64,000 nt of DNA, taken from positions 384 through 64,383 of the forward strand of contig CAZTZR010000002.1 in NCBI GenBank assembly GCA_964618145.1, given 5' to 3'. Made by a program: the position numbers and the translations under genes. Below the pieces are notes generated by a model that was not told the origin of the DNA, ran no database searches, and saw only the letters and a list, made by a program, of their open reading frames with translations. This DNA is from an uncultured Kofleriaceae bacterium. Lineage in GTDB: Bacteria > Myxococcota_A > Polyangia > HGW-17. This document shows, in pieces, positions 13,217 through 44,576 of the stretch (the first letter of the stretch is position 1; every line of letters begins with the position of its first letter).

Positions 13217-13242
13217 TCAAGTATTGAAACAGGGCATGGGTC

Positions 13243-14196
13243 CTATTCATGAAAAACATGCACTGATCTGGGCAAAGTTGTAAATTCACGCCGGTTCAAA
13301 CCCAAATCATAAAGTACCGTAACTTCAGTGCTGATTCCAGGTTTTATCGTGAAAAAACTGGCATAGCCGTGTTGATAGATGTACATCATCCCCAACCCGG
13401 CCCCTCCTCCTTCGGTGTCGATCTGGCCGGCCTGGGACAAGGCCCGGTGCATACCCCCGAAGACATGCTTCCGTTTGAGTCCCCCGAAAGGATCACGTAC
13501 GGAAACTGCCAGGGTTTCCCCATCGGTTCCGATGCAGAAGGAAGCCGCCTGATGTTCTTCAAGTTGGACTTCCTGTTTGCGATCCTGGGCGTACAGGTGC
13601 TGTCCCTGTTCATCCACGGGCGCATCATACACGGCATTCATCAGCAACTCATGGGTCAGTTCAGCGAATGACTCCTGCACTTTCGGTGGCGTCCCCAGTT
13701 TCTCGCAGAAGGTGGGAACCCAGTCCACAATCAGGTGGAGATCCTCCGAGCTGAAAACAGGGGTTTCATGCAGGCGTGCTCCCCAGTGCAAAAACGGCTT
13801 TACACCCTCAATATCATAACTCTTGATGTGGCGACGCACCACATGAAGCACTTCCCAGAGCCTCAGCGGATTGGCGGCCCGGCGTCCGAAAATGTGATCC
13901 ACGCGGGCATCCGAAGCGGCCACTCCAAGGGCGCTGGCGGGATCCTCCTCCATGAGCACCAGAATGGCACACTCCGGAGGTGCCGCAACAAGAGCCAATT
14001 GTAAAAAACACTCGGATACCAGGAGAATCCTGGTATCCTCACCGAAATCTCCCGTGCTGGGAGCGCTCTCTTTTGTCAGACACTTCAGACCCGCAGCGAA
14101 GAACACTTTTTCCAGTCGACGCAGAGTGATGACATCCTTGTCGCAAGCCAGTATCATGGGCTTGTTTGTCGAATCGGTCATGAGTTTCCTGTCCAT
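13243..14196 (-). CDS. Receiver-like (probable pseudo-receiver) domain fused to a GHKL/HATPase_c anti-sigma-factor-type serine kinase domain (RsbW/SpoIIAB-like)
   Basis: N-terminal beta-alpha REC-like pattern with Glu at the usual phospho-Asp position (ILLVSE). C-terminal N-box ELLMNAVYDA and G2 box GGGAGLGMMY. 26 bp downstream of the STAS gene. Confidence 0.55.
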   Translation of the reverse strand: MDRKLMTDSTNKPMILACDKDVITLRRLEKVFFAAGLKCLTKESAPSTGDFGEDTRILLVSECFLQLALVAAPPECAILVLMEEDPASALGVAASDARVDHIFGRRAANPLRLWEVLHVVRRHIKSYDIEGVKPFLHWGARLHETPVFSSEDLHLIVDWVPTFCEKLGTPPKVQESFAELTHELLMNAVYDAPVDEQGQHLYAQDRKQEVQLEEHQAASFCIGTDGETLAVSVRDPFGGLKRKHVFGGMHRALSQAGQIDTEGGGAGLGMMYIYQHGYASFFTIKPGISTEVTVLYDLGLNRREFTTLPRSVHVFHE

Positions 14197-15411: not shown

Positions 15412-16815
15412 TCAAAAGGCCGCGACCTTCATCGTCACATAATACAGAACCGTATCCGTCCCATACAAACCCCGGCACACACCAATGGCGGCATGGGTGC
15501 CCTTGGCATGCTGCATGTTCAGCCGGTGTCCTTCGCTCTTGATCCAGGCGGCCACCACTTCTTCGGGCGAAGGTCCCATGGCTACATTCTCCGCCACCAG
15601 TTGGGGTTTGAGTCCTGCCTTGATCACCCGGTTCAGGGGGGAACCGGTACTCCCGGAGATATGGAATATCTTGCGGTGTTGGCACATTTCTTCGCTGTGG
15701 CTGCGGGAGAGGGCCGCCAGTTTCGCATGGTGCAAAAACGGCTTCATGTTGAGTCGTTTGCGGTATTCGTTGACCCTGTCCATAACATCCTTTTCGAAAA
15801 CATCAATACTTATCTCCCTGGTTGGTTCCTGCATGCGTGCCGCAGTCTTCTTCTCTGCATAGGATTCTCCGCAACCCACCGGAAACAGGGCTGCCACAAA
15901 CGGCCCCTGGGCATCCTTTCCCAGAAGTTCCACATTGTAAAAACCCCGTTTGTCCTGGTCATTGCAGAAATCCAGCCGGACCGTAAACGAACCGTCCGCA
16001 GCGAGTTTCACCGGCATTCTGGCAATTCCCTCGTCCGGGGAAGTCACCAGGACCTCCAGTCCAAAGGTACCTCTCTCCATGGTACCCTTTACGGTCAGAA
16101 AATCCCCGGGTTCCACCCAACGGGGAAACGGGGCATGGGACAACCGGCGTTTCTGCATCAACAGGACCAGAACATCTGAACCGTCATCCTTTTTGCCCCT
16201 TGCAAAACCAAAATGGGTGATTCCATGCTGGCTACGGTATTGATGGAGGTTTTTGGCCACCCATTGGGCCATGAAGGCATCATCATACCCGGAAGCCACC
16301 AGATAATTCTGCAGGATCCACGGACTGGAGATCCCCCAGCGGGAAGCTATTTCCATCAACGAACTCGGTTGCAGCGGCTTGCCCTGGAACACCAGCAAGT
16401 GTCCTGCAAGTCCACTGAGTGCCTGACTGTGTACTGTCGGGAGTTTGCCGGACTCAAACCGTTCCCGGATTTTATTATACATGGAAATAGAGTTTGCCGG
16501 CACTTCTTCGGAATCCGCATACTGGCGAATCACTACGGGCGGTACAGGAACCGTCACGGATTTCTCCCCAGGTTCGTCAACGGGAGTGCCTCCCTTGACC
16601 TCCGGATGCACGATCTCCCGGTTTTGTGCCCTCCCCTCCACCATGGTGGCCCCGTGGACCGTTTCCGGCCGGCTGGATGTTCCCTGTTGGGTGCAATGAG
16701 CCAACAACAGACATCCGAAATACAGGAGTCCAAAAGAAATGCGGTACCCCTGTATCGTGGAGTGCACGCCATTGCCCAATGGGCACGCAACAAATGAAAT
16801 ACCCGGATTCATCAT
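15412..16815 (-). CDS. Lipoprotein with C-terminal CAP (SCP/PR-1/YkwD-like) domain
   Basis: Lipobox LLLAHC after a signal peptide starting MMNPGISF. C-terminal CAP signature region (VNEYRKRLNMKPF...HSEEMCQHRKIFHIS...GENVAMG...WIKSEGHRLNM). The track start at 17238 is an unlikely 141-codon upstream extension. Confidence 0.65.
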   Translation of the reverse strand: MMNPGISFVACPLGNGVHSTIQGYRISFGLLYFGCLLLAHCTQQGTSSRPETVHGATMVEGRAQNREIVHPEVKGGTPVDEPGEKSVTVPVPPVVIRQYADSEEVPANSISMYNKIRERFESGKLPTVHSQALSGLAGHLLVFQGKPLQPSSLMEIASRWGISSPWILQNYLVASGYDDAFMAQWVAKNLHQYRSQHGITHFGFARGKKDDGSDVLVLLMQKRRLSHAPFPRWVEPGDFLTVKGTMERGTFGLEVLVTSPDEGIARMPVKLAADGSFTVRLDFCNDQDKRGFYNVELLGKDAQGPFVAALFPVGCGESYAEKKTAARMQEPTREISIDVFEKDVMDRVNEYRKRLNMKPFLHHAKLAALSRSHSEEMCQHRKIFHISGSTGSPLNRVIKAGLKPQLVAENVAMGPSPEEVVAAWIKSEGHRLNMQHAKGTHAAIGVCRGLYGTDTVLYYVTMKVAAF

Positions 16816-17041
16816 GGAATTGCCTCTTGCCTGACCAGTTGCCAGGAAAGGAATCACCCGGAAAACCCGGAATGTTCCCCATACCAATTCATACAGGTTT
16901 TTTGATGTTTTGGGAGTGTTTTTTTCTTGTGGAGGTTCCGGGATTCTTTCCCTTTGATTTCCTGTTCGATTTCTGTTAGCCTTATCGCCCTGTGACTGGA
17001 TATGACTGAAGGTCATCAACACATCCATTGAGGAGTACACC

Positions 17042-17956
17042 ATGAAAAAATCCACCATTCTTCTTCTTTCCTTCGCTCTTCTGTTTGCGGTTGCCGCATG
17101 CAAGAAGAAAGGCTCCAAGTCCTCCGGAAAAGCTGCCGAAGCCACCAAGGCCGCTGCTGGAGAAAGTGCCGCCACCGCTGAAAAGGAACTGGGTCTCAAA
17201 CCCGGACTCATGCTTTCCCTGAATATCAAGTCCCTCAAGAAAACCCCGTTCTATGATGACATCCTCAAGGGCGTCAAATCGGATGAAACCACCGGAAAAT
17301 GCATGGAAAAAGCCCTTGAGTCCGCCGACTCCCTGTTGCTCATGATGGATGTTGCCGCCATGGTGGCTGACGAGAACAGTGAGCCCAACATGTATGTGGC
17401 GATTTTCGGCATTGATTCCAAGGAAACCATCGACTGCATCAAGAAGATGGAAGACAGTGATCTCAAGGAAGGCAAACTCAACGGAGCCGATGCCTTTGTT
17501 TCCGAAAAGGACGGAAAGAAATACATCTGGGCACCCAACGACAAGACCATCGTTGCCGTGGGCGGCAAATATTCCGAAAAAATCACTCCCGGAAAAGACG
17601 CCCTCGGAAAGGGTGAACTGAAGCCCTTCGGCGGTGACAAATCCATCGCCTTCAGCGTGGGTGAAGTAAAGAATCCCATGGTCAGTCTGAAGGAAGCTTC
17701 CGGCATGGTTGATTTCGCCAGCGGTCTTGCGGTCGACATTTCAGCCACCCTTTCGAGTGAAAAGGAAGCGGAAGAACTTGAAAAGCAGTATGAGCAAGGC
17801 AAAGCCATGGCGGAACCCCTGGGCATGGGAGATCTGGTGAAAAACCTGAAGTTCTCCCGCAAGGGCGCCACCCTGGGCATCAACCTGAAACTTTCTGACA
17901 GCGAGTTCAAGGGTCTGATCGAAAAAGCCAAGGGCATGGGCGGACTTTCCATGTAA
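17042..17956 (+). CDS. Lys/Glu-rich lipoprotein of unknown function
   Basis: Signal peptide plus lipobox (LLFAVAAC). Strong C/G third-position codon bias (AAG, GCC, TCC) suggests high expression. Confidence 0.6.
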   Translation: MKKSTILLLSFALLFAVAACKKKGSKSSGKAAEATKAAAGESAATAEKELGLKPGLMLSLNIKSLKKTPFYDDILKGVKSDETTGKCMEKALESADSLLLMMDVAAMVADENSEPNMYVAIFGIDSKETIDCIKKMEDSDLKEGKLNGADAFVSEKDGKKYIWAPNDKTIVAVGGKYSEKITPGKDALGKGELKPFGGDKSIAFSVGEVKNPMVSLKEASGMVDFASGLAVDISATLSSEKEAEELEKQYEQGKAMAEPLGMGDLVKNLKFSRKGATLGINLKLSDSEFKGLIEKAKGMGGLSM

Positions 17957-19066: not shown

Positions 19067-19154
19067 GGAGAGATGTCCGAGTGGTCGAAGGAGCCTGACT
19101 CGAAATCAGGTGTACGAGTTATCGTACCGGGGGTTCGAATCCCTTTCTCTCCGC
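19067..19154 (+). tRNA. tRNA-Ser (anticodon CGA), long variable arm, no encoded CCA
   Basis: Cloverleaf read by eye: acceptor GGAGAGA/TCTCTCC, anticodon stem CCTGA/TCAGG, loop CTCGAAA, T-loop GGTTCGAATCC. Confidence 0.85.
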
Positions 19155-19196
19155 GACATTCCGGTCATCTTGACCGGAAGTGAACGAATCATCTCT

Positions 19197-19284
19197 GGAG
19201 AGATGTCCGAGTGGCCGAAGGAGCACGATTGGAAATCGTGTGTGTCGCAAGGCACCGAGGGTTCGAATCCCTCTCTCTCCGCCA
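19197..19284 (+). tRNA. tRNA-Ser (anticodon GGA), long variable arm, CCA encoded
   Basis: Same acceptor/D-arm as the upstream tRNA; anticodon stem CACGA/TCGTG, loop TTGGAAA; ends ...CTCTCTCCGCCA. Confidence 0.85.
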
Positions 19285-19286
19285 TG

Positions 19287-19398
19287 TCAGCCTTTGAGGC
19301 TCCGGGCGACGCAAGCTTTGTGAACCCCGCCAGGTCCGGAAGGAAGCAACGGTAGCTTGGCAAGCGGGTGCCTGGAGCCTCAAGGGCTGCTTTTTTTC
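19287..19398 (+). ncRNA. ffs: Signal recognition particle RNA (4.5S RNA, small bacterial type) with 3' U-tract
   Basis: Conserved domain IV motif CCAGGUCCGGAAGGAAGCAAC (19331-19351) inside a long hairpin closed by CAGCCUUUGAGGCUCC / GGAGCCUCAAGGGCUG (19288-19303 with 19375-19390), followed by CTTTTTTTC. Canonical position upstream of dnaX. Confidence 0.75.
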
Positions 19399-21606: not shown

Positions 21607-22212
21607 ATGTCAACCCTTCTGCCGCCCAGCCTTACGGAACTAGTAACGGCCTTGTCACAACTTCCTGGCATTGGAAACAAGACCGCCCGCAGACACGCTT
21701 TTCACCTGATCGAAGGTCCACCGGATCGTCTCCAGAGACTCTCGGAGGCCCTCGAGCGCGTTCAACAGGAACTTTCCCGTTGTTCCATCTGCGGTTTCTT
21801 CGCCTCGGATGTTTCCGGATGTCCCATCTGCACGCGCCATGAACGTCACACCCGAGAACTTTGTGTCGTTGGTCGTATCCAGGATGTGCTCGCCATTGAG
21901 GAGGCTGGCATTTATCAGGGACGATATCATGTTCTCGGAGGATACGTATCTCCGTTGAACCGTGTGTTTCCCGAAAACCTGCGTATCCGCGAATTGCTTG
22001 AGCGCATCGAACCTGAAAAAATCCAGGAAATCATTCTCGCTTTTGATGCCAATCTCGATGCGGATTTTACCGAAAAATACCTGGTGGATGCCCTTCCCAA
22101 ATCCATTGTCATTCATCGGATAGCCGCAGGGATTCCTTTTGGCGGGGAACTTGAGTACACCGATGGTGTCACCCTCTCCCATGCTTTCTCCCTGAAAAGA
22201 CCCATTTCATAA
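21607..22212 (+). CDS. recR: Recombination protein RecR
   Basis: HhH (LPGIGNKTARR), C4 zinc finger (CSICGFF...CPIC), Toprim domain. Confidence 0.92.
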   Translation: MSTLLPPSLTELVTALSQLPGIGNKTARRHAFHLIEGPPDRLQRLSEALERVQQELSRCSICGFFASDVSGCPICTRHERHTRELCVVGRIQDVLAIEEAGIYQGRYHVLGGYVSPLNRVFPENLRIRELLERIEPEKIQEIILAFDANLDADFTEKYLVDALPKSIVIHRIAAGIPFGGELEYTDGVTLSHAFSLKRPIS

Positions 22213-22287: not shown

Positions 22288-22842
22288 TCAGCCACCGCGT
22301 GTCTTGACGATGGCGAAACTGAATCGAACGTATTTGGCACGCGTGGCGGTCAGCATGACCTGGTTCACCAGTTTCCAGGGAATATTGGTATCTGCCGCAA
22401 TGAATGCGTCTCCCTGGAAATTCGCTTCCGACCCTGCCGCTCCACCCCTGGCATCAATTTCCTTCTGACGGATTTCATCCAGGGCATCCTTGAGTGCATT
22501 GATGATGAAGCCGTCAGATGTATCGGAAGAAGCCACGGTCCCGTTGGTGACGGCTACAATCTTCTTGCCTTTCACCACGATGGTGGTACGGGAAATCTGG
22601 ATGTCCACACATTCCACCATGTTGCTCATGGAATCCGACTTCGGAACCATCAACTCGTTTTTCTTCTGGGGAACCTGCATCGGATCGGATCCGTAACTCT
22701 TCAGAAGAAAGATCAGGATGATGGTGAGAGCGTCCATCAGGGAGGTGATGGTCAGCGGATTGTCCCCAGGAGTCCAGGGCTTTTTCTTTTTGGATTTCAT
22801 CTGCTCGAATAACAGTTCGTCTTCCGTTTTCACATCAGACAT
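22288..22842 (-). CDS. TolR/ExbD/AglS-like proton-channel stator subunit (paralog 2), Asp present in TM helix
   Basis: LTITSLMDALTIILIFLL TM helix with conserved Asp; ExbD/TolR periplasmic fold length. Confidence 0.75.
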   Translation of the reverse strand: MSDVKTEDELLFEQMKSKKKKPWTPGDNPLTITSLMDALTIILIFLLKSYGSDPMQVPQKKNELMVPKSDSMSNMVECVDIQISRTTIVVKGKKIVAVTNGTVASSDTSDGFIINALKDALDEIRQKEIDARGGAAGSEANFQGDAFIAADTNIPWKLVNQVMLTATRAKYVRFSFAIVKTRGG

Positions 22843-22855
22843 GAGAGTACTCCTT

Positions 22856-23509
22856 TTAGGGACGACCCACAGCTACGAGGGGGAACATACAGTTGCCTTC
22901 AAGGGCCCAGTCCTTGTCGCCTGCCTTTTTCTTGAACATGCAGGCCAGGGTGCTTCCCTTGATGGCATCCGGTGTTTCGGCCCGGGCTTCCGGAGGAAGT
23001 TCACGGGCGGCATCCAGCGTTTCAATGACGGTTTCGTACAGGATGGTGTCTTCCGGCACGATGGTCACCTTGCCCCAGTCAGAGAAACCACCGGACTTGG
23101 CATCCTTGGACCCGTCCAGGGAATTGTTCTTGTAGTAGGGCTTGTAGAACTTGTCGAACAGGAACTTGCGAAGGGCGCTTGCGTTGTACACGCGCTTGCC
23201 GCCGGCGTGCGTCACCGGAATGCAGACCCGGTTGTTGGCGGTCGCCTGGGGACAGGCGGAACCACCGGCCTTGGTCGTGACATCGTAGCCGTCCTGCTTG
23301 ATATTGATGGTCAAGCCCAGGGATTTCTGGGTATCATCCTGTTTCTGCTGCTGGGACCGCGACTGCCTCGGCGTGTCGACCAGAACAATACCGATCTGGA
23401 TGAATTGCGCGCTCAGCAGAAGGAACGGAATCAGCAGGCACAGCAGATTCATGATCGGCATCAGATTCAGGTCTTCCATTTTTTCATCAACAGCCATCTT
23501 TTTGCCCAT
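22856..23509 (-). CDS. TolR/ExbD/AglQ-like subunit (paralog 1) with Cys-containing periplasmic insertion; TM helix lacks the canonical Asp
   Basis: EDLNLMPIMNLLCLLIPFLLL TM helix motif; 217 aa. Confidence 0.7.
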   Translation of the reverse strand: MGKKMAVDEKMEDLNLMPIMNLLCLLIPFLLLSAQFIQIGIVLVDTPRQSRSQQQKQDDTQKSLGLTINIKQDGYDVTTKAGGSACPQATANNRVCIPVTHAGGKRVYNASALRKFLFDKFYKPYYKNNSLDGSKDAKSGGFSDWGKVTIVPEDTILYETVIETLDAARELPPEARAETPDAIKGSTLACMFKKKAGDKDWALEGNCMFPLVAVGRP

Positions 23510-23609
23510 GACTATGACTCCTCAGCCAATGGTTATCCGGTACAATCCCGGAATCCTTGCCTGTAGCGGCCACTCCGCGGGAAGGCCGCCCCTGTGACAA
23601 CAAGACAAA

Positions 23610-24245
23610 TCAGCGGGCGCGGGTCAGGCGCCGGGCCAGCAGGTTGTCCAGTTTGGTTGAGAACAGTTCCACGTCGTCGATGATCTTCTTGGTGAAGGAG
23701 GTCAGCAGAAGATGTGCGGTCAGACAGGGAACCGCAACGATCAGACCGAACGCGGTGGTGTTCATGGCGATGGCGATACCGCTGGAGAGAACCGCGGAGC
23801 GGTTTTCGGGGGTCGCCTGACCAAGAGCGTCGAACGCCGCGATCATACCAAGAATCGTTCCGAGCAGACCGCAAAGGGTGGCGATGTTGGCCACGCCCTG
23901 CAGGGCCGGGGTACGACGGGTCACTTCCGGAGCGATTTCCAGTTTGGCTTCCTCAATGGCTGCAGACACGGCAGCGGCGCCATCGCCGTACTTGGTCAGT
24001 CCGGCCTTGATCACCCGGGGAAGCGCTGCGGTGGGGGCAGCATTGCAGAGCTTGATGGCAGAGTCGATGTTGTTGGCTCCCACCAACTGCATGATCTGGC
24101 TCATGAAAGCTTCCGCATTGATGTTGTAGCGGAAAAGAAGGAAAATGGACCGTTCAATGATGATTGCGATACCGAATGCAGAAGCAAACAGAATCACGTA
24201 CATGAATTCGCCACCATCAACAAATGCCTTTGCGAGACCACTCAT
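23610..24245 (-). CDS. TolQ/ExbB/MotA/AglR-like proton channel subunit
   Basis: Three TM helices, conserved C-terminal helices (GIAIAMNTTAFGLIVAVP). Confidence 0.8.
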   Translation of the reverse strand: MSGLAKAFVDGGEFMYVILFASAFGIAIIIERSIFLLFRYNINAEAFMSQIMQLVGANNIDSAIKLCNAAPTAALPRVIKAGLTKYGDGAAAVSAAIEEAKLEIAPEVTRRTPALQGVANIATLCGLLGTILGMIAAFDALGQATPENRSAVLSSGIAIAMNTTAFGLIVAVPCLTAHLLLTSFTKKIIDDVELFSTKLDNLLARRLTRAR

Positions 24246-24424
24246 TTGTACTTCCTCCGAATGGGCAAGATGCCCGGTTAAAGTGAGTTAAACCTATAAA
24301 AACTGTTTGAGAAAATCAATTGTTATTCTCTCTTCAAAAGTCGAATTCGCCCGGGCATTTCCGCAGGCGCTGGCATTTATAACGTATTTTCCCGCCCATG
24401 GGAAAGAAAATTGTACGCATTCCA

Positions 24425-24673
24425 TCAGAAAGGTCCTTTTCCAAGCGATTCATGGATTTTCCTCAGGAAATTCTGGAAAAACCGGGGATCTTTTTCATCC
24501 CATCGCCAGAAACCCCCGTATTCCCATGCCTTGAAAATCTCGAAACGGGGACGGGGGATCTGTACCTCAAGGACGTCTGAATCATTTTTCGCTCCCTGGG
24601 CAGCGGCAGGGGAGATCTTTCCAGCGGAATAAAACAAACAACTCATGAACAGCAAAAAGTGAATGATTTTCAT
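24425..24673 (-). CDS. Small secreted protein (signal peptide, ~60-aa mature region, Trp-rich)
   Basis: ORF start overlaps the stop of the upstream TPR lipoprotein gene, so it sits inside the operon. Signal peptide MKIIHFLLFMSCLFYSAG. Confidence 0.4.
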   Translation of the reverse strand: MKIIHFLLFMSCLFYSAGKISPAAAQGAKNDSDVLEVQIPRPRFEIFKAWEYGGFWRWDEKDPRFFQNFLRKIHESLGKGPF

Positions 24674-25809
24674 TATTTGGATCCTTTTCCAAGACTGTCG
24701 ATCCGCTGCTTCGCCTGTTCCATCCAGGATTCCACCCGGATCTGCAACGCTCGATCGGGGGACTTCTGTTTTTTCAGGGAATCCCTTACTGCCCTGGCAT
24801 GAAACATGGCCTTTTCCATTCTGGCCTTTTCAGCAAGATTGCCTATCTGTGGATACTCTTCCATACTGATGTACAAAAGAGCCAGATTGTAATGGCACTT
24901 TTCGCAGTTTTTATTGAGATTCAACGCATACTCCAACTTGGTCAGGGCCTGGGACGCCTTTTTTTGCATCATATAGCCGGCACCAAGATTCAGGGGCAGA
25001 CGCCACTCCCGGCTCAGTGCGCCCTTTGCTGCAAGTTTCTCGGCATTCTCCAGGACGGTGACGGCCTGGTTCACTTCCTGCCTTTCCAGCAGCAACACCC
25101 CCAGCAGGAACTGGGCTTCCCCGTGACCAGCCAGCGATGAATGCGACAAATACTTTTCCGCCTGGGACTTCAGGCCGATGGCACCAATGTTCATGCCTTT
25201 GCTTTCAGCGTTTTTCGCCTGGAAAACAAAATATTTCCCCATCATGAAATGCCATCCCGCCCCCGGTTCCGTGGGGGGATTCTGCTTCTTGTGCATCCCC
25301 TCGACGTATTCGAGTACGGAACGCAGTTTTTCCATGTTTTCCTGCTGATAGTGGATGGTGGCCATCACCATGAGGGCATCCACATTGGAGAAGTCCAGTT
25401 TGAGAACATCTGTAATCAGCCGGAAAGCCTCGGCGTAGGCGGCTTCGGTTTTCTTCTCGGCATGTTTGGCCGCCTGGTTCACGAGGACCTTGATACGTTC
25501 CGGTTCGGACAAATCCCCGGTCTCGGCGGTACCCGATTCGGTGCCCTCGCCCCCCGCAACAACCCCCTCGCCACCTTCACCGGAGGAACCTTCATCCCCG
25601 GTTTCCGTGGAAGTGGTTGTGGCGGGCTTTTTCGGGTCGGAAGAGTCCGTTTTTCCGGTTTTCGTTTCGGTAAACGGGTCCTTGTCCGCAGTGGTCTTTC
25701 CCTTTTTCTTGGTGCATCCTGCCCCCGCCATCGCGAAAACAAGCACCATGCAGAGCTGTGCCAGAATGAACTGGCGATACGGTTCCAGCGCGGAGATCCT
25801 TCTCATCAC
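24673..25809 (-). CDS. TPR-repeat lipoprotein with low-complexity Thr/Gly/Glu-rich linker
   Basis: Lipobox MAGAGC; TPR-like helices (AEKYLSHSSLAGHGEAQFLLGVLLLERQE..., NCEKCHYNLALLYISMEEY). Confidence 0.6.
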   Translation of the reverse strand: MMRRISALEPYRQFILAQLCMVLVFAMAGAGCTKKKGKTTADKDPFTETKTGKTDSSDPKKPATTTSTETGDEGSSGEGGEGVVAGGEGTESGTAETGDLSEPERIKVLVNQAAKHAEKKTEAAYAEAFRLITDVLKLDFSNVDALMVMATIHYQQENMEKLRSVLEYVEGMHKKQNPPTEPGAGWHFMMGKYFVFQAKNAESKGMNIGAIGLKSQAEKYLSHSSLAGHGEAQFLLGVLLLERQEVNQAVTVLENAEKLAAKGALSREWRLPLNLGAGYMMQKKASQALTKLEYALNLNKNCEKCHYNLALLYISMEEYPQIGNLAEKARMEKAMFHARAVRDSLKKQKSPDRALQIRVESWMEQAKQRIDSLGKGSK

Positions 25810-25820
25810 GTATTCTCCTC

Positions 25821-28800
25821 TTACCTGGTCAGACTTTCCACCTCGGGCAAATAGGTTCGCCGAAGGGACTTCTTCCCGGAAAAGACACGGTATTCCTCCA
25901 GCGCCTCTTCAATAAGACCACTGGACAGTTTTTCAGCCTCCACCAACTCATACAGCGTGGCAAAGGTCTTGTTGTACTCGTCCGTGATTTTGTCCAGGGG
26001 TACAATGGCCAGATCCTGCTCTTTTCCATCGATGGTGACACGATACGTCTGCTGGTAGTAGGTCTTCTGGCTCCACTTCAGGAAACAGGTTTCCTTTTCC
26101 TCGGCTTTGGTCTGGGTACAGCCGGACTTCTTGACTTCCTCTTCATCCTTCATGGCCTCCCGCGCCAGGGCCACCGGATTGGGCGCCTCCTCGAAGGCCC
26201 GGATCCCACGATAGAGCAACTGCATCTTCAATGCCAGCAAATCCCCCTTGATCTGGGCCACCTGCTTGCGGAACACACCCTTTTGTTCCTTGTACCAGTC
26301 ATATCCCCGGGCCAGGTTGTCCAGGGCACTGCCATTGCCCAGCATCAGGGTCACCGTGTTGGTGGCTGACTGGAAGACACTCATGAATGCCAGCGTTGGC
26401 AACACGTTCGCCAGCAACTGCTGGATGTCCTCCATCTTTCCCTCATCCGGCTTGATCTTTTTGAGGATGTCCTCTGCCTTGGTAATCGCCGGGTTGTTCT
26501 GTCCCGAATATCGCTTCTTGACGCTGGCCAGGGCCTTTTGTGCATGGGGCAATTGGTCCCGAAGGAACTTGGAATTGCTGTCCGGGCTGAGTTTCTGGCT
26601 GGCCGCGCCCAGGGACTGCTGCTCCTTGAGGATGGCCGTGATGTCCTTTCGTGCCATGATGGTCTTCTGTGCCGCTGCGGCAAAGTCACCCGAAGCCGAG
26701 AGATCCTTGATGAAATTCGGATATTTCTTGTTGAGGGACTGGTACTTGTTGACAGCGGCCTGCACATCCTTGTTCGGTACGGAACCAGGCTCGGCCTGCA
26801 CCTTCTGGATCAACTGGATGGCCGTCACCAGTTCGACCAGTTCAGCCTGGACTTCCTGGATGATCTTGTTCTTGTCTTCTTCGAGTTTGTTGAAGCGGGC
26901 GACAATCTCGTCACTCTTGCCCTGCAACTGCTTGACCCAGGTCTGGTAATTCATGGCAACCCGTTCATAGGCATCAATTTCCACAGTGGTTTTCTCGCTG
27001 AACGGGTTTTCAAAACTCCTCACCAGGGCGTTCTCGGCAAACTGGATCAGGGCGATGGCATAGTTGATCACCATGATTCCAGGATCGAGCCCTTCGCGTA
27101 CACCCTGATCATAAAGTTGCTTGTACTCTTCGAGAAGTTTTACATATTCCTCGCCGGCCTTTTTGGCCCGGTCCGCATGGCGGGTCTGGAGGGCCTGCAA
27201 CATCTTCCAGTGGTTCGCCTTGCGGAACATCAGATCCAGCCGGGCTTTCCACATGCTTTCGTTTTCCTTGCTTTTGACCTTTGCCAGGGGTACATAGCCG
27301 TCCAGGAATTTCTCGTACTGCTCAATGCGGGAGATGATATCCCGCACAACCGTTTCGGAAGAAGTTTTCCGGGCCAGTTCATCCATGTGCATGTTGAAAA
27401 CGATGTCGGTATAAAAGAGCGTCTTGTCCGAGACCGTTACCCGGCATTTTCCGCCTGAACACTCCGGACGAACCATATAGAAGTTTTCGAGGTTTTCCTC
27501 GCTCACACCCATGCGCTGCGCCACCTGCTTGAGCATGTCGTTTTCGGACACTTCAAACACCCTGTTGTATGTCTTTTTCCCCTTCCGGAAAATCTCGAGC
27601 AACCGATCGGCCTGGGCCAGGGCCCGGTTGAACTGCTTCGGACCGCCGGTCCGGTATATGGAGAAGAGGTTTTCTTCGGCCAGGATGCGGTAGGTGCTTT
27701 CCTCACGGGTATCAATCTTGCCACCCGCCCGGCGAATCCGCCAGGCGCCTGCCTTCACGACGGTCAACTCCTGCCACATTTTCAGGGCCAGATCCTCCAT
27801 GAAGAACTTCGTGGCAGCCTGGGCCAACTCAAAGAGGATTTCCTGCTTGTAGGCTTCCTCGTGGGCCAACGCCATCATGCGCCCCGTGGGTTCCTCGTAA
27901 ATCCTGCGGTGCAGGATCTCAATGGCTCCCGGATAATCCCCCAACTCCTTGTAGCATGTATAGATTTTCCAGTAGACCCCGAAGAGGTTTTTCTCGAACT
28001 CCCGGACTTTGGCGGTTTCCTTGTCATCGGGACGCCGGTCCTTCATCATGGTTTCCAACTGACGGTAAATCAGCAGGGTTTCACGCCATTTTTTCGTATC
28101 GTTCTTGCCGTCCTTCTTGAGTGCCTCCGCCTCGGCAAACACATCCTCGGCCTTTTTGACCAACTCGTTGAATTCCAGTGCAGAAATCATCATCATCAGT
28201 TCGCGGTGTTCCTTGTCTCCGCCACATTTCTGCTTTTCCAGACGCTTGATGGCCGCTTCCCGCTCGGCCACAAACGTGGATTGCGCCGCGGGGTCCACAT
28301 CCTGGAACTTGTAGGACAGGAACAACTTGATGGAAGCATTCATGGCCGCCGTATGGGTGCAATATTTTTCCAGAATCTGCCAATACAACTTCCTGGCTTC
28401 CTCAATTTGCCCGAAATGCAGGTAGATATCGGCGATGTTGTTGAAAAACACCGGCGAATTGTTGTGCGCCGGGAAGATCTTCATGTACTCGTATGCATCC
28501 TGGATATAGTCCTTGAAGTCCGCTGTCAGTTCCCGGGGCTCATATCTGACTTTTTTGTCCTCATCCTTGACATCAAAGGGCGGCTCTGGAATTTTCAGAT
28601 CCATTTTCTGATCGTAAATGGAATAGATCATTTCAGCGGCATCCCGCTGGTGTCGGCTGCCGAGATGGGAATCCCGCACGCGCCGCCCCCAGTTCAGGGC
28701 GGTCTGGATGAACTCGCGGCGCTGTTCCTCCGAGGAGGCCAGATCGATAATGTAACTGTGGTAGATGATCAATATATTGTACATGGAAGTATATTCCATG

Positions 28801-30848
28801 GAACTGTTGGGGTAATCCCGGATTACTTCCATATAGTAGGCAATCACCCGTTCAAATTCTTCCAGGGCCTTTTTGGACAATTTGGCCTTTTCCGCTCCCG
28901 TGGCCTCCTTGGCCTGGTCCCCGACCTGCATTGCCTGGGAAATCATGGCCTGGCCAGTATCAATCAAGGCATATACCCGAATCCGGAGCAGTTCTTCACG
29001 CAGTTGATCCAGGGTCATGGCCCGCAACCGGACATTTTTTTTCATATTTTCATTCAAAAATCTCTGATGGGAGATGAGATATTGCTGGATTTCATCATTG
29101 GTAAAGGCTTTGTTCACAGCAAACTGGTAGATTTCCCTCTTCTTGTCCTGCCAGGTACTCAGTTGCCCACGCAGGGTGTTCTTGTCCCTCTCCGAACGGA
29201 CTTCGATAATCTCCCGCTCGATGGCCTGAATCTTCATGTCAATCAGGGAAATCATGTTCCAGAAGATGGCCGGCTTGTCCGGATTGTGTCTCCATCCGCC
29301 TTCCACCGTCATGTTGCGAAAAATGTAATCATACAGTTCATAGGCAAAGTTGTAGTCCGTTTCCGAACGTTGATAGGTCCGGTTTTCCTCATATCCCATG
29401 AAGAAATCCGCCACACCTTTCCATATGCGCTTGACGTGGGGCTCATTTTCCCTGCCCTTGTAAAAGGTGGTCAGTTTTTTCATCGGGCATTTGTCAGTGC
29501 ATTTGACTTCGAAGGGTGCTGTCCAACTGAACTGCCGCTCCGGATCACTTTCCCCTTCGATGTATTTCTCCTCCTGAAGCAAAAAACCGATGTATTTGAT
29601 GGCAGCTTCATGGGGACTGTTTTCATCGAGATTCTGCCCCATGAGAACGACCTGATCGAACAATTGCATTCCCAATGCCGAGTTGATGTCGTTCTGGTAC
29701 ATCATGAGGCCGGAAAAATACACGATATAGCCACGGGTGGAGAGGGAGCGGAATTCCGGGCCAAGAGCCTGCTTGTATGCGGAAAGGGAATACCACTTGG
29801 TCAGGGCCAGATTGAAGAGCACCTCCCGGTCTGAACGGGCCTCTGCAAGAAATCCCAGTCCATTGGTGGCCGAAAGATACTTGCCGAGGGTGGCCCAGGC
29901 AGTCCCCAGAAACTCCGTATTGCCCTTGATGGGACGACAGGTGGCAAAGGGGTCGAAAGGGAGATGGGCGGGGAAGTCCGTAATGGTCCACTGCGTATAA
30001 TCCCCCATGGCGGTGGGGGGCATGACTTCCAGGCCCTTGCGGGTCAAAAACGTACGCAGATCATCGGAAAAGGGGGAAAAACCCCAGTTGCCACAAACCG
30101 AAGCCAGGGACAACTTTGCAGGCATGATCTCGTCAGGATCATCCAGGGAAAACGGAGGTTTCTCGTAGATGCGGGCCAGAAGGTGCAGAACCGACCCGAT
30201 ATCCCTGAACTGGGGGTAGTGAATGACCAGTTTGCGGAGGTTTTCCTCACTTTTTTTACGGAAAAAATCAATTCCCATGTCCGCTTCCGCCGGACGCACG
30301 GTCCCCTTGGCCAGTTCATGGGCACGCTTCAGGATGTCCTGATATTCTTCGTCGTAGATTTCCTTCCCGGTGGCTTCATCGTTGGAGATGTAATACAAAA
30401 ACAATTCTTCCGCGATCTCCTGGTAGATGACCGCCGTCCGCCACAGAAGTTCCGGTGTCCAGGTGGGATCCGGGTTCTTTTCGTATTTGTCCAGCCGCTG
30501 TTCCAGAAGGCGCAACAATTTGGCGCGTTCCACGATATCCCGGGCCTTGGCCAGACGACTTTCCTGATCCACCTGGGCCCGCTGGAATTTTTCCTCGTTG
30601 CTTTTCTGGCGTCGAACGAGATAATCCGCCGTTTCGGAAAAGCGGATGATTCCTTCCTTGTATAAAAGGTAGTCCCTTCGAAGTGCATCAATTTCCTTTT
30701 GAACCAAAGGATTTTCGGTTTTCTGTGGAATTTCCGCCTTTTCCGGTTCCTTTTCAGGCTCGGGCTTTTTCGGTTTTGCCTGCGCCATGACCAGGGAAGG
30801 ACCGAACAACAGGCCGGAAAAAAGAAAAACAATGAATCGGATTTTCAT
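25821..30848 (-). CDS. Giant (1675 aa) secreted alpha-helical TPR/coiled-coil protein
   Basis: Signal peptide MKIRFIVFLFSGLLFGPSLVMAQA. Almost entirely helical repeat sequence. Stop overlaps the downstream gene start region by 12 bp; start overlaps the upstream gene stop by 4 bp. Confidence 0.65.
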   Translation of the reverse strand: MKIRFIVFLFSGLLFGPSLVMAQAKPKKPEPEKEPEKAEIPQKTENPLVQKEIDALRRDYLLYKEGIIRFSETADYLVRRQKSNEEKFQRAQVDQESRLAKARDIVERAKLLRLLEQRLDKYEKNPDPTWTPELLWRTAVIYQEIAEELFLYYISNDEATGKEIYDEEYQDILKRAHELAKGTVRPAEADMGIDFFRKKSEENLRKLVIHYPQFRDIGSVLHLLARIYEKPPFSLDDPDEIMPAKLSLASVCGNWGFSPFSDDLRTFLTRKGLEVMPPTAMGDYTQWTITDFPAHLPFDPFATCRPIKGNTEFLGTAWATLGKYLSATNGLGFLAEARSDREVLFNLALTKWYSLSAYKQALGPEFRSLSTRGYIVYFSGLMMYQNDINSALGMQLFDQVVLMGQNLDENSPHEAAIKYIGFLLQEEKYIEGESDPERQFSWTAPFEVKCTDKCPMKKLTTFYKGRENEPHVKRIWKGVADFFMGYEENRTYQRSETDYNFAYELYDYIFRNMTVEGGWRHNPDKPAIFWNMISLIDMKIQAIEREIIEVRSERDKNTLRGQLSTWQDKKREIYQFAVNKAFTNDEIQQYLISHQRFLNENMKKNVRLRAMTLDQLREELLRIRVYALIDTGQAMISQAMQVGDQAKEATGAEKAKLSKKALEEFERVIAYYMEVIRDYPNSSMEYTSMYNILIIYHSYIIDLASSEEQRREFIQTALNWGRRVRDSHLGSRHQRDAAEMIYSIYDQKMDLKIPEPPFDVKDEDKKVRYEPRELTADFKDYIQDAYEYMKIFPAHNNSPVFFNNIADIYLHFGQIEEARKLYWQILEKYCTHTAAMNASIKLFLSYKFQDVDPAAQSTFVAEREAAIKRLEKQKCGGDKEHRELMMMISALEFNELVKKAEDVFAEAEALKKDGKNDTKKWRETLLIYRQLETMMKDRRPDDKETAKVREFEKNLFGVYWKIYTCYKELGDYPGAIEILHRRIYEEPTGRMMALAHEEAYKQEILFELAQAATKFFMEDLALKMWQELTVVKAGAWRIRRAGGKIDTREESTYRILAEENLFSIYRTGGPKQFNRALAQADRLLEIFRKGKKTYNRVFEVSENDMLKQVAQRMGVSEENLENFYMVRPECSGGKCRVTVSDKTLFYTDIVFNMHMDELARKTSSETVVRDIISRIEQYEKFLDGYVPLAKVKSKENESMWKARLDLMFRKANHWKMLQALQTRHADRAKKAGEEYVKLLEEYKQLYDQGVREGLDPGIMVINYAIALIQFAENALVRSFENPFSEKTTVEIDAYERVAMNYQTWVKQLQGKSDEIVARFNKLEEDKNKIIQEVQAELVELVTAIQLIQKVQAEPGSVPNKDVQAAVNKYQSLNKKYPNFIKDLSASGDFAAAAQKTIMARKDITAILKEQQSLGAASQKLSPDSNSKFLRDQLPHAQKALASVKKRYSGQNNPAITKAEDILKKIKPDEGKMEDIQQLLANVLPTLAFMSVFQSATNTVTLMLGNGSALDNLARGYDWYKEQKGVFRKQVAQIKGDLLALKMQLLYRGIRAFEEAPNPVALAREAMKDEEEVKKSGCTQTKAEEKETCFLKWSQKTYYQQTYRVTIDGKEQDLAIVPLDKITDEYNKTFATLYELVEAEKLSSGLIEEALEEYRVFSGKKSLRRTYLPEVESLTR

Positions 30849-33502
30849 TTGGGTTTTCCCCCTGTGGAGGATTCTTTGGATTCTCCGGGCTTCTTTTTTT
30901 CATCCGGGGAATCTTCTTTCCGGTCGAAGGGATCCTTCATCCGGTCTTCATCGAATTTCACCTCGAACTGCTCGACTTCCCTGTACCGCTGCCTCATCTC
31001 CGTGGTGATCTGGATGTTCCGGTCATTCAACTGAATCCATTCCAGACGGGTCTTGGAACGCAGGGACCAGTTCACGTCCACCACTCCAAGATCCGATTCC
31101 ACCACCACATCATAAAAATGTTTGGCCACCTGACGGATGCTCTCCCGGGTGATTTCCCGGTTGAGAAGGCCGGATTCCTGCCGGTACTGTTGATACTGCA
31201 ATTCATAGGTCTTCAGATTGGCTTCCTCAAAATCGATCTCCTGCCTGATCTTTTCCAGCCTCTCATCCGCCATGGCCTGCAGTTTCCCGTTCAGGACATC
31301 CAGTCGTGTGTCCATGGTCGCCGCGCTGTTCATGAGCATGACCATCCTGTCATAGACAGCCATCTCCTGCGGAGAAAACCGCGACTTGACGGATTCCCAG
31401 GATGCAAACTCCCCGTTGATGGCCTGCCGGTACTTCTCCCGGACAATCCGTTCCGACTCCATGTCTGCATCATCCACACCGATATTCAGGCTGGCATCGG
31501 TGATCTGGCTGCGTACCTGTCTGGCCATTTCCAGTGCCGACTCCACATCCGCCGCCTCCTCGCGCAACTGTTCCATGAACGGCGCCAGTTGCCTTTGCCG
31601 GGCCTCGGACTGCTTTTTGTAGTATTCATACAACCCGGTGATGATTTGCTGGTATCCCTGAAGATCCTTGGCCAGATTTTCCACCTGGAGGATTTTCTCG
31701 TCGTAGACCTTCCGGCGCGTGGTCATGCGTGATTCCAGGGAATCCGTACTCTTTGGCATGGTGGAGAAGATCTTTTCCAGTTCCTGCCGTTCCTTCTCGT
31801 GTTTCTTCATCTGGCTGGCCACGTTTCCTGTCAGGTGGCGGGAAAACCTTTCCCGGGCCACCTTGAGAAGTGCCGCCCGGGCTTCCATGTTGCGGATCTC
31901 CATCTCGTACGTCTTCTGGCGGGTTTCAGCCAGCAGGGGAAAAAGTCCGATTTTGCTTGCAGACTGAAGCCTTCGCTTGACCATCTGCATGTTTTCCCGG
32001 GCCAGTTCCAGGTTCTTTCCGATTCCCGAAATATCCTCACTCAGAATGATGGCCTTCATGAGGGTCTGGTTTTCGTGGAACAGGGGAAGGCTTTCCGCCG
32101 GAATGTTGTAGCGGACCCTGAAGGCGTCCGTGGGTCCGGACGTCTCCCTTCCCGGGTCGCGGGCCCGGACGATCTGGTCAAAAAAGGCCTGTACATCGAT
32201 TTCCCCGTCAGCCAGTTTCTGCACGGTTTCGTGTACTCCACGGTAACGTTCGGCGGTTCCGTCAAAGTATTCCGTGGCTTCCTTCCACTTTTCCCCCCTG
32301 AGATTGAGATATCCCAAAAGGAGGCGGGCCCGGGGAAGAAACACACTGTTCTTGTTGCGGGCTTCCATGATGGCCAGGGTCTCGGCCGCCTTCATGACTT
32401 CTTCATCCCGGACATACACCCAGGCCATTTCATACAGGGCATCCTCGTAATGTGCCGATTTGTCGGAAATCATGCGGTACCAGCGGATGGCTTCCCCGGT
32501 TTCCCCGAGTTCATAAAAAATCCGGCCCAGGGCCATGCGGGCCAGGGCCTGCACTTCATTTTCGTCGTTATTGCGGGGCTTGAACGGTGCAAATGTCTTT
32601 CCTTCCAGTGCCAACACCGTTTCAAGCCACTTCCGGGTCACTTCGTCCGATGCCAGGATGGCAAATCTCCGGGCAGCCTCAAAGAGCAACATTTCCCGCA
32701 TTTCCGCCAGGGAAGTGGTCACTTGCGTCAGTTGGATATGGGTTCCGTCCCTCACAAAAGAAGTGGCCCCCACCTGTGCCATGTGAACCAGGGTGGCTCC
32801 GGAGTAATAGACTGCCTGGGAAAACAGTTCCGGAAAAACCGGTTGTTTGTCCCCGCCGGTTTGCGGCCGGATACGGCCGAAAAACCGAAGGGCTTCGATA
32901 AACTTTTCCTGGGCCCATACTTCCCGGCGTTCCACCGCAGGTTTCTGGAATTCTTCGTGAGCCTGGTGATAGGCAAATTTTCCGCGGGCATAGTTGACTT
33001 CGGGAGAGTCCTTCAAATCAGGCATCTGTTCCACCAGGGAAACGAGTTTTTCGATACCCCGGTAACTATGGGTCCTGATGGAGATCTCCAGCAACCGGCG
33101 AATGGCCGTGGAGCGAAAGGCCGGATCCCACCTCTGCTCCACCACCATCCAGTAATAGTCTGCCGCCACCTGGTAATTGGCACTGGCAAACATGGACTCG
33201 GACAGGTAAAAGGTGGCCTCCTTGCCCAGTTCAGGGTGTTCAATGAGGGAGAGGAAAAGTGCCGCCGCATCCTGGGGACGGTTGTTCCGGAAAAGATACA
33301 CCGCATTCAGGAAACGCTGCATGTCATCCTGACGCTTGCCTTGGGCCACCCTGGTGGCACTTTGGATCACTTCCTCCAATCGCTTGATGGCAAAATCCAG
33401 GGTGGAAAATGATTCTCCCACCTTGACCATGGAATCGGCCTGGGAAATGGCAGGCCATGCAAGCACGAACAGGGAAGCCAGAATTATCACCCGAGTCTTC
33501 AT
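30845..33502 (-). CDS. Secreted TPR + long coiled-coil protein (~885 aa)
   Basis: Signal peptide MKTRVIILASLFVLAWPAISQA with RBS AAGGA upstream of the ATG at 33502. The track's GTG at 33553 adds 17 non-signal residues. C-terminal E/K/R-rich coiled coil. Confidence 0.6.
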   Translation of the reverse strand: MKTRVIILASLFVLAWPAISQADSMVKVGESFSTLDFAIKRLEEVIQSATRVAQGKRQDDMQRFLNAVYLFRNNRPQDAAALFLSLIEHPELGKEATFYLSESMFASANYQVAADYYWMVVEQRWDPAFRSTAIRRLLEISIRTHSYRGIEKLVSLVEQMPDLKDSPEVNYARGKFAYHQAHEEFQKPAVERREVWAQEKFIEALRFFGRIRPQTGGDKQPVFPELFSQAVYYSGATLVHMAQVGATSFVRDGTHIQLTQVTTSLAEMREMLLFEAARRFAILASDEVTRKWLETVLALEGKTFAPFKPRNNDENEVQALARMALGRIFYELGETGEAIRWYRMISDKSAHYEDALYEMAWVYVRDEEVMKAAETLAIMEARNKNSVFLPRARLLLGYLNLRGEKWKEATEYFDGTAERYRGVHETVQKLADGEIDVQAFFDQIVRARDPGRETSGPTDAFRVRYNIPAESLPLFHENQTLMKAIILSEDISGIGKNLELARENMQMVKRRLQSASKIGLFPLLAETRQKTYEMEIRNMEARAALLKVARERFSRHLTGNVASQMKKHEKERQELEKIFSTMPKSTDSLESRMTTRRKVYDEKILQVENLAKDLQGYQQIITGLYEYYKKQSEARQRQLAPFMEQLREEAADVESALEMARQVRSQITDASLNIGVDDADMESERIVREKYRQAINGEFASWESVKSRFSPQEMAVYDRMVMLMNSAATMDTRLDVLNGKLQAMADERLEKIRQEIDFEEANLKTYELQYQQYRQESGLLNREITRESIRQVAKHFYDVVVESDLGVVDVNWSLRSKTRLEWIQLNDRNIQITTEMRQRYREVEQFEVKFDEDRMKDPFDRKEDSPDEKKKPGESKESSTGGKPK

Positions 33503-33549
33503 GGTTCCAATCCTTACGCTGGAAAAATGTACCGGTTGGCGGAAGTGAC

Positions 33550-34311
33550 TCACTTGGAGCCCTTGGATTCTCCGTCACCGTCCTGGACAACCAGAGCACC
33601 GGACTTCAGTTGGAATTCAATGTGCGGCCGTTGATCCAGCGGAGTGGTCCATCCACCCTTTTCAACACCCCTTACTTCAAGGATGTATTGCTTGCCGGGC
33701 TCCACATTGAATGAGTACGTATTATGAACATCCCATTTCCATTCCCTTACATACCGGAACATCCCATAGCCATTGCCCTGGTAGGTGATGAATACCCGGA
33801 ACCGTACATTTCCGGGAGAAACATGCCCCACCGGAATGGAAATCTCCTTTTTGGCCAGCGTTTCCCGGTCCTTTTCACCGGCATCACTGTAGGATGCAAT
33901 CAGTTTCCCGTCCATCATGTAGCGCAGGCGAATCATCCTGAAAGCCCCACCCATGCGGTTGAGATGGCGAATCTCGATGCGGGCTCCTCCCAGGACTGCA
34001 CCCCGCTCCACGGTCATGGCTTCCTTGAGGAGCTGCAGGCGAAACTTGGTGGCAGTAACCTTGTTTTTCAGATCTTCCACAAGTTCGGCCAACTGGCGCA
34101 ACTTCAATTCGTTGCTGGATACCTCCGCGGCCTGGATGCGATCCGGGGCGGGACTGGTATCCCGGTCTTTTTCCGTTCCCACCGTCAGGGGTACTCCCGT
34201 GACGGCCGGAGGCGTTTTCACCTCGGGAGAGGTGGGGGGTTCCTGTGCATATGTACGGCTGCCCAGCGCCAATACGAGCATCATAACTGGAAATAGGATT
34301 CGCGTTTTCAT
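33550..34311 (-). CDS. Secreted protein of unknown function (N-terminal coiled coil, beta-rich C-terminal half). First gene of the 8-gene operon.
   Basis: Signal peptide MKTRILFPVMMLVLALGSRTYAQ; RBS GAGAGG 5 nt upstream of the ATG at 34311. Confidence 0.5.
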   Translation of the reverse strand: MKTRILFPVMMLVLALGSRTYAQEPPTSPEVKTPPAVTGVPLTVGTEKDRDTSPAPDRIQAAEVSSNELKLRQLAELVEDLKNKVTATKFRLQLLKEAMTVERGAVLGGARIEIRHLNRMGGAFRMIRLRYMMDGKLIASYSDAGEKDRETLAKKEISIPVGHVSPGNVRFRVFITYQGNGYGMFRYVREWKWDVHNTYSFNVEPGKQYILEVRGVEKGGWTTPLDQRPHIEFQLKSGALVVQDGDGESKGSK

Positions 34312-44500: not shown

Positions 44501-44576
44501 TTGAAAATACTGCCTGCATGTGGTTAACTCCGGGTGCCATACAAGGCCGGCATGGCGCCGCAGCTAGGATCCCCGA

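Follow-up and report, generated by a model that had tools for sequence, protein, structure and literature searches.

A probable reduced Agl/Glt-type trans-envelope operon with its own TolQ/TolR-like motor in an uncultured Kofleriaceae bacterium

The function of Agl/Glt core complexes outside the gliding myxobacteria has been a standing question since 2011, and it is raised again by an operon in a 64,000-nucleotide (nt) stretch of DNA from an uncultured Kofleriaceae bacterium (contig CAZTZR010000002.1; the whole stretch is hereafter called the window). On the minus strand, at positions 22288 to 34311, one TolQ-like and two TolR-like genes are joined to genes for very large secreted proteins with tetratricopeptide repeats (TPR), and the question is which trans-envelope machine these genes encode and what it works on. 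The eight co-oriented open reading frames (ORFs) listed in an initial annotation, which was made from the sequence alone, were all found at the coordinates given there. We consider it probable, at about three chances in four, that the locus is a member of the Agl/Glt family of trans-envelope machines (the "gliding transducer" or "core complex") and that it has its own motor. Because genes for GltG, Wzp and Wza are missing and the operon ends at recR, the form seen in the window would be a reduced version of an already known kind, the core complex.

The motor genes stand directly after the scaffold genes. A 211-amino-acid (aa) proton-channel subunit of the TolQ/ExbB/MotA family (23610-24245; Pfam MotA_ExbB, 4.5e-23) is followed by two TolR/ExbD paralogs of 217 aa (22856-23509; Pfam ExbD, 1.1e-8) and 184 aa (22288-22842; Pfam ExbD, 1.3e-6), in agreement with the one-TolQ-plus-two-TolR composition proposed earlier. 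The arrangement of the window, in which the eight genes end after the second TolR gene, is referred to here as type W, and the fuller clusters that hold the nearest TolQ relatives outside type W are referred to as type F. The TolQ-like protein is 61-67% identical to the TolQs of type F clusters, 26% identical to E. coli TolQ and 17% identical to ExbB. It scored 66 bits on the TolQ equivalog model TIGR02796 (cut-off 221), and the ExbB equivalog models gave 34 bits against cut-offs of 135-206. For the TolR-like side, the equivalog model TIGR02801 gave 19 bits against a cut-off of 127 and the ExbD_2 model 23 bits against 123. With scores far below the equivalog cut-offs and the nearest relatives in Glt-like clusters, the earlier proposal of an AglRQS-like motor with a Glt-like TPR scaffold, rather than a Tol-Pal or ExbBD-TonB system, held. 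The channel subunit of the putative motor is provisionally termed AglR-like.

Threonine occupies the positions of TolQ T145 and T178 in all of the type W and type F proteins. At the position of TolR D23 and ExbD D25, the 184-aa paralog has Asp and the 217-aa paralog has Asn, so that one TolR carries the channel Asp and the other lacks it, as had been read from the sequence before; both residues are invariant in the aligned type W and type F relatives. The features of a 5:2 proton motor, namely two channel threonines together with the membrane Asp that one of the axle paralogs carries, are thus present in the predicted proteins. The 184-aa paralog has a cytoplasmic tail of about 30 residues, and its orthologs at the same position in type F clusters are 34-36% identical to it. 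A sequence search of the PDB with both TolR paralogs matched no solved TolR, ExbD or MotB chain.

In order to place the 217-aa paralog, an exhaustive search of 1.84 billion proteins was made with it, and 500 cluster representatives were retrieved at E<=1e-3. The motif L-N-x-x-P-x-M-N...L-I-P-F-L-L, with the Asn, was found in about 138 of the 150 best cluster representatives. Therefore, the Asn-type TolR forms a broad subfamily and is not a local accident. In a few relatives in this subfamily (P0155-P0304), the Asn is replaced by Ser, Gly, Ala or Tyr; the residue is Tyr in the closest relative of the 217-aa protein outside type W (P0157). In Myxococcus xanthus, both AglQ and AglS carry the membrane Asp (review, PMC9389320), and the D28N substitution in AglQ abolishes gliding and sporulation (Wartel et al. 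2013, PMC3858216). Since the same change, made artificially, kills the Myxococcus motor, the natural Asp/Asn pair bears on how a 5:2 motor steps.

Five genes for exported proteins precede the motor genes. The first encodes a secreted protein (33550-34311) of 253 aa, not 254 aa as first reported, with a signal peptide followed by a low-complexity linker and with no Pfam or NCBIfam match. The second product, an 885-aa GltC-like periplasmic protein (30845-33502), has a signal peptide, an N-terminal TPR half (Pfam TPR_16, 2.9e-11) and a C-terminal coiled-coil half. The third is a 1675-aa GltD-like periplasmic protein (25821-30848) with a signal peptide, a helical/TPR region and an all-helical C-terminal third. 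It is followed by a GltE-like TPR lipoprotein of 377/378 aa (24673-25809; Pfam TPR_19, 6.8e-8), whose lipobox reads ...G-C-S/T-K-K-K and keeps the Cys in all relatives, and by an 82-aa secreted protein with a signal peptide at the GltF position (24425-24673). The mature part of the 82-aa protein is nearly identical among relatives and its C-terminus is GPF; the small proteins at the GltF position in related clusters all end in [E/D/G]PF. The genes are closely packed, and two of the four overlaps claimed for them were found (4 nt at 30848/30845 and 1 nt at 24673), whereas 33550/33502 is a 47-nt gap, given the ATG start that the public gene call uses for its 885-aa product, and 25821/25809 is an 11-nt gap.

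Among the NCBIfam models, GltC (NF033756) matched the 885-aa protein at 4.1e-10, with 39 bits against a cut-off of 450. Because this score is below the equivalog cut-off, the 885-aa protein is regarded as a paralog of GltC and not as an ortholog. The GltE, GltG and CglF models matched none of the window proteins, and the 378-aa protein did not reach the GltE model at E<0.1. Since GltC alone matched window proteins, and below threshold, the links to the Glt proteins were made through intermediate families. Homologs about 22% identical to the 885-aa protein (E 1e-30 to 1e-50) occur at 392 loci, mostly of Polyangia including Sorangium cellulosum, and the Polyangia cluster common to these loci is referred to as type P. 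Its genes encode, in order, proteins of about 289, 800, 1100-1460, 470 (TPR), 85, 190, 480 and 193 aa. Members of the GltC-like family of this cluster matched the NCBIfam GltC model at 1e-19 and 5e-16, members of its GltE-like family matched the GltE model at 3e-25 and 6e-27, and a type P protein matched the GltG model at 7e-31, with the AgmX/PglI C-terminal domain above its own cut-off.

The window proteins were linked to type P by aligning family against family with hhalign. The 253-aa protein aligned with the first type P protein (about 289 aa) at 5e-46, and the 885-aa protein with the GltC-like (sce5945-type) family at 5e-82 over 743 columns. The 1675-aa protein aligned with the sce5944-type GltD-like family at a probability of 99.9% (1.2e-33; 809 columns, query columns 112-1100). 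The 378-aa protein aligned with the GltE-like family at 99.3% (1e-20), compared with 8e-6 for a TPR control family, and the 82-aa protein with its type P counterpart at 79.8% (1.5e-5) over its last 16 columns alone. In addition, the type F counterpart of the 82-aa protein gave a weak match (1.4e-4) to the NCBIfam model of CglF, which we take to be the same protein as GltF. The NCBIfam GltD model was matched by none of the proteins tested, and the GltD assignment runs through the sce5944-type family and not through M. xanthus GltD. In the survey of Luciano et al. 2011 (PMC3169522, Table S3), sce5940-5945, STAU_2684-2688 and MXAN_1919-1923 are listed as GltC/D/E/F/G homologs. The family alignments show the predicted scaffold genes of the window to be homologous to these clusters gene for gene and in the same order. 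By the same alignments, the 253-aa protein is a further conserved member, the product of the first gene of the cluster family.

The giant TPR proteins had been taken for Glt-like scaffold proteins, with GltI/AgmK among the candidates. The Glt-like scaffold is borne out; the GltI/AgmK identity of the 1675-aa protein was rejected, as hhalign aligned it with GltD-like proteins. A GltG/TonB-C domain fused into the 1675-, 885- or 253-aa protein was likewise rejected (hhalign probabilities <=1.2%), and for the C-terminus of the 1675-aa protein the all-helical model also ruled it out. In that model, the C-terminal 575 aa, a lineage-specific part, form helical bundles and two hairpins (pLDDT 86), and no fold analog was found for it in the PDB (best E 0.098). 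A single-sequence model of the 253-aa protein, made with no alignment and of low confidence (pLDDT 61), places an Ig/FN3-like sandwich after a long helix, and only generic Ig/FN3 matches were obtained for it among PDB folds.

When one genome per species was scanned, type W was found with the same eight genes, order and flanks in at least 9 species-representative genomes. Among these relatives, identity is 39-67% for the scaffold proteins, with the lowest values at 39-44%, and 90-94% for the TolQ-like protein. In a search of 5.8 billion proteins, close homologs of the 1675-aa protein numbered only 13, and every one came from uncultured Myxococcota. The eight-gene arrangement is, as judged from these comparisons, conserved far beyond chance, and the kept lipobox, mature 82-aa sequence and channel residues argue for what would be a working system.

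In type F clusters, the same eight genes are followed by genes for a GltG-like protein, a protein of about 190 aa, a Wzp-like barrel of the BBP2_2 family and a class-3 Wza-like exporter, which is a short Poly_export protein; some clusters also have Wzc or Wzy. The GltG-like protein matched the GltG model at 1e-54 and scored 107 bits on the model of the C-terminal domain (cut-off 40); in the closest type F relatives, its gene lies directly 3' of the second TolR gene. Type F was found in the cultured Persicimonas caeni (CP042468), in three Myxococcota metagenome contigs, in the relative with Tyr at the Asn position and in Ca. Alcyoniella australis of the phylum Ca. Lernaellota, whose TolQ is 49% identical to that of the window. 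In a neighbor-joining tree, which carries no support values, type W and the Myxococcota type F group are sisters, with the Lernaellota type F outside the pair. In the window, tblastn with four GltG-like query proteins found no GltG-like homolog over the full 64 kb. The previously noted lack of tolA, tolB and pal was confirmed on the same scale, with no tblastn match to E. coli TolA, TolB, Pal or CpoB, and that of a TonB-like C-terminal domain was confirmed with Pfam and NCBIfam for the operon proteins and their immediate neighbors. The simplest reading is that type W has lost the 3' half of a type F-like cluster, as far as gene content and the tree can tell. The closest relatives carry a GltG-like gene directly after the second TolR gene, and the missing TonB-like partner would be a derived peculiarity of the lineage of the window.

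In type P, the loss went in the opposite direction. The protein of about 190 aa in type P, which is a cluster without TolR, is a TolQ relic (hhalign 3e-13) in which both channel threonines are lost. This degenerate TolQ-like gene lies between the GltF-like and GltG-like genes, at the position of sce5941, and is unlisted; examples are found in loci L004 (18448-18999), L006 (8765-9373), L021 (11839-12501) and L036 (18196).

It was also proposed that motor and scaffold genes sit in a single operon. They do, but this is not new. The core complex defined by Luciano et al. 2011 (PMC3169522) consists of aglR/aglQ/aglS and gltC/gltD/gltE/gltG in one operon, and Bdellovibrio glides with clusters that also join motor and Glt genes. 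The core complex of Methylibium has the order C-D-E-x-R-Q-S-G (Luciano et al. 2011, PMC3169522), which matches that of the window, and C-D-E-F is also the order in the nfs and Anaeromyxobacter glt clusters. The window shares with the core complex one TolQ and two TolR genes beside GltC-, GltD- and GltE-like genes in the same order. It differs in that no GltG-like TonB-C protein follows the motor within the window, in the extra first gene for the 253-aa protein and in the size of the GltD-like protein (1675 aa versus 941-1292 aa). It may differ further in the TolR paralog with Asn for the channel Asp; in AglRQS of M. xanthus both TolR-like subunits are reported to have the Asp, whereas in the window only the 184-aa protein has it.

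The clusters of the MXAN_1919-1923 type have five homologous first genes in the order of the window, at about 22% identity of the scaffold proteins, and share the GltC-like protein of about 800 aa, which has a coiled-coil tail, as well as the small protein with a C-terminal PF and the first gene for 250-290 aa or so. These clusters have GltG-like, ~190-aa and Wzp-like genes and no TolR, and their TolQ-like gene lacks the channel threonines. The window, in contrast, has none of those three genes but an intact-looking motor whose TolQ keeps both threonines. Type F has the same eight genes and order, pairs an Asn-type with an Asp-type TolR and likewise leaves a long gap in front of TolQ, but continues with the GltG-like, ~190-aa, Wzp-like and Wza-like genes where the window ends at recR. 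The Agl-Nfs system (PMC3858216) resembles the window in its Glt-type scaffold, with NfsC-D-E-F in the same order, and in its TolQ/TolR-type proton motor. Agl-Nfs borrows the separate AglRQS motor via NfsG and has the outer-membrane proteins NfsA/B/H, whereas the window operon comes with a motor of its own and lacks both a G-type transducer and outer-membrane genes. The 5:2 proton-motor superfamily also takes in Tol-Pal and ExbBD-TonB, which share with the window the channel threonines and the membrane Asp in a TolR/ExbD partner. The window is unlike them in its scores below the equivalog cut-offs, in its two unlike TolR paralogs, one of them without Asp, and in its Glt-type TPR partners, and it has no TolA, TolB, Pal, CpoB or TonB within the 64 kb.

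If the locus is an Agl/Glt-type machine, a TolQ-like pentamer would surround a TolR(Asn)/TolR(Asp) heterodimer to form a 5:2 motor, in which proton flow through the single Asp site would drive movement. The movement would be passed to a periplasmic scaffold of the GltD-, GltC- and GltE-like proteins. In this scaffold, the GltD-like protein may serve as a periplasmic pillar to which the GltC-like, GltE-like and small proteins are attached, as in the AlphaFold model of Glt, and the 378-aa lipoprotein would anchor the assembly in a membrane. AglR of Myxococcus is connected to the scaffold by GltG/NfsG. Because the operon has no GltG-like protein, coupling would have to run via the TolR periplasmic domains or via a gene elsewhere. 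The transducer and the outer-membrane module may have been lost from the operon in the lineage of the window, being either encoded elsewhere or dispensable. A stronger version, in which the motor is free of a transducer and its asymmetric Asp/Asn axle engages the GltD/GltC scaffold directly in a cycle with a single proton site, appears rather unlikely to us. If it were true, it would mean a different mode of coupling; the Asn-type TolR subfamily would mark a class of asymmetric motors, and these would be tied ancestrally to Wzp/Wza polysaccharide export.

As to the output, we hypothesize that the family most likely handles or places surface polysaccharide or other outer-envelope cargo and that gliding as such is not its job. 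This is proposed because of the Wzp/Wza/Wzc neighbors of type F, the position of MXAN_1915/1916 beside MXAN_1919-1923 and the precedent of Agl-Nfs, which acts on Wza-exported spore-coat polysaccharide instead of moving the cell (Wartel et al. 2013, PMC3858216). Five type F loci across two phyla have Wzp-like and Wza-like genes after the cluster: L087 (14547-16563), L088 (15043-17227), L092 (14370-16394), L093 (7990-10088) and L094 (13771-15705). A Wzp-like gene without a Wza-like gene follows the cluster in four compact Polyangia loci. In M. xanthus, MXAN_1916 and MXAN_1915 are WzpB and WzaB and adjoin MXAN_1919-1923. Together with WzpB/WzaB, which serve a biosurfactant polysaccharide, the neighbors found in the two phyla suggest the handling of secreted polysaccharide as the original job of the family.

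No paper was found that notes the link between Glt-like clusters and a Wzp/Wza neighborhood, and none that describes the type F clusters, in the literature on MXAN_1919-1924 and on Glt genes in Bradymonadales, where nothing went past Luciano 2011. Three features appear to be undescribed so far: the type W form with its reduced gene set, the Asn-type TolR with its wide distribution, and the regular occurrence of Wzp/Wza genes next to type F. Since type W consists of motor and periplasmic scaffold alone, it shows which parts can be dropped.

Several points weigh against the assignment to the Agl/Glt family and the function proposed for it. No GltG-, TonB- or TolA-like transducer is encoded in the operon or the 64-kb window. 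The 217-aa Asn paralog departs from the model AglRQS motor, as AglQ and AglS both have the Asp and AglQ D28N is dead. The links at the GltE and GltF levels are weaker than the others, given the TPR background of 8e-6 and the 16 columns on which the GltF link stands. The output is a guess, because there is no outer-membrane or polysaccharide gene in the operon, and nothing in the window itself supports any particular output for type W.

The same homology to GltC/D/E and to an Agl-like motor could mean that the locus encodes a compact Agl-Glt for moving the cell, and so a genuine machine for surface gliding. Persicimonas, a carrier of type F, is reported to glide, and so does Bdellovibrio, with its joined motor and Glt genes. 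However, Luciano et al. 2011 (PMC3169522) argued that the core genes alone are insufficient for motility, and an insertion mutant of MXAN_1922, in the nearest Myxococcus paralog, glides normally. The window has no homologs of the type F GltG-like, ~190-aa, Wzp-like and Wza-like proteins, and the operon has no outer-membrane or adhesin gene, although GltA/B/H/I/J/K and CglB themselves were not searched for; gliding is an unlikely function on this evidence. A Tol-Pal-like machine for envelope integrity or division, in which TolQ/TolR energizes TPR proteins of the YbgF/CpoB type for outer-membrane constriction, would account for other features. TolQ is the best NCBIfam match of the channel protein and TolQ chains are its best solved relatives, YbgF/CpoB TPR models match the 885- and 1675-aa proteins weakly, the ybgF model gave 137 bits with the type F GltD-like protein, and ftsA/ftsZ are 4-7 kb away from the operon, with murC also close by. 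This explanation is nevertheless quite improbable. The TolQ score is 66 bits against the 221 of the equivalog, tolA, tolB, pal and cpoB were not found in the window, for the TolR paralogs no match to a solved TolR or ExbD was obtained, the scaffold is made of Glt paralogs, and in M. xanthus a complete Tol-Pal system exists separately, in addition to the Glt clusters.

One ExbB gene with two ExbD genes is a layout found in the TonB systems of Xanthomonas and Bacteroidetes, and both small proteins of the window match Pfam ExbD. An ExbB-ExbD-ExbD energizer whose TonB and receptors are encoded elsewhere is, however, very unlikely, in view of the 34 bits on the ExbB equivalogs (cut-offs 135-206), the lack of TonB or a TonB-dependent receptor nearby and the consistent linkage of the motor genes to Glt-like scaffold genes across phyla. 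Finally, the operon could be a decaying remnant that no longer works, left when a type F cluster was stripped of its transducer and its outer-membrane half. It does lack the GltG-like, Wzp-like and Wza-like genes that all its nearest relatives have, and the Polyangia clusters show visible decay of a different half, the motor. A remnant is very unlikely: none of the eight genes is disrupted in the 9 diverged genomes, TolQ is kept at 90-94% identity across the lineage while the scaffolds are at about 40%, the channel Thr and Asp residues are invariant, and the 82-aa protein is almost unchanged. An Agl/Glt-type machine remains the favored assignment.

The TolQ-like gene is set apart from its neighbors, with a gap of 179 nt upstream and of 100 nt downstream. 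When 9 relatives were aligned, the upstream region (24246-24424) was found to contain the conserved blocks AAATA[C/G]GTTATA and, immediately in front of the ribosome-binding site GGAGGA, a TTAACCGG...GCCC hairpin. In all of the related clusters, 150-360 nt separate the TolQ gene from the gene before it, and the motor genes may therefore have their own promoter or leader. We predict that the 179-nt region is likely to be an internal promoter with a 5' leader hairpin. A generic promoter and terminator scan gave hits at chance level, and no Rfam match was obtained within the operon.

At its 5' boundary, the operon faces a divergent thymidine phosphorylase gene, and its 3' boundary is the convergent recR, within recR-ybaB-dnaX. 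The public gene call has a 175-aa ORF (21655-22182, minus strand) opposite recR (21607-22212, plus strand). Because recR has clear Pfam matches, this ORF looks like a shadow ORF and not like a ninth gene of the operon. Just upstream of dnaX, two tRNA-Ser genes (anticodons CGA and GGA) and a small signal recognition particle (SRP) RNA were found at 19067-19387. As the longest dnaX ORF (start 19368) overlaps the SRP RNA, the real start of dnaX is further downstream. Between murC and the tRNA/SRP locus, at 11015-14196 and 15412-17238, there are large ORFs of 733 and 317 aa without a Pfam match and an ORF for a 608-aa protein with a C-terminal CAP (cysteine-rich secretory protein) domain. At 43179-45896, the genes for a protein with sigma-70 region 2, an unannotated 220-aa ORF and a 439-aa protein with TPR and two cyclic-nucleotide-binding domains may form a small regulatory module.

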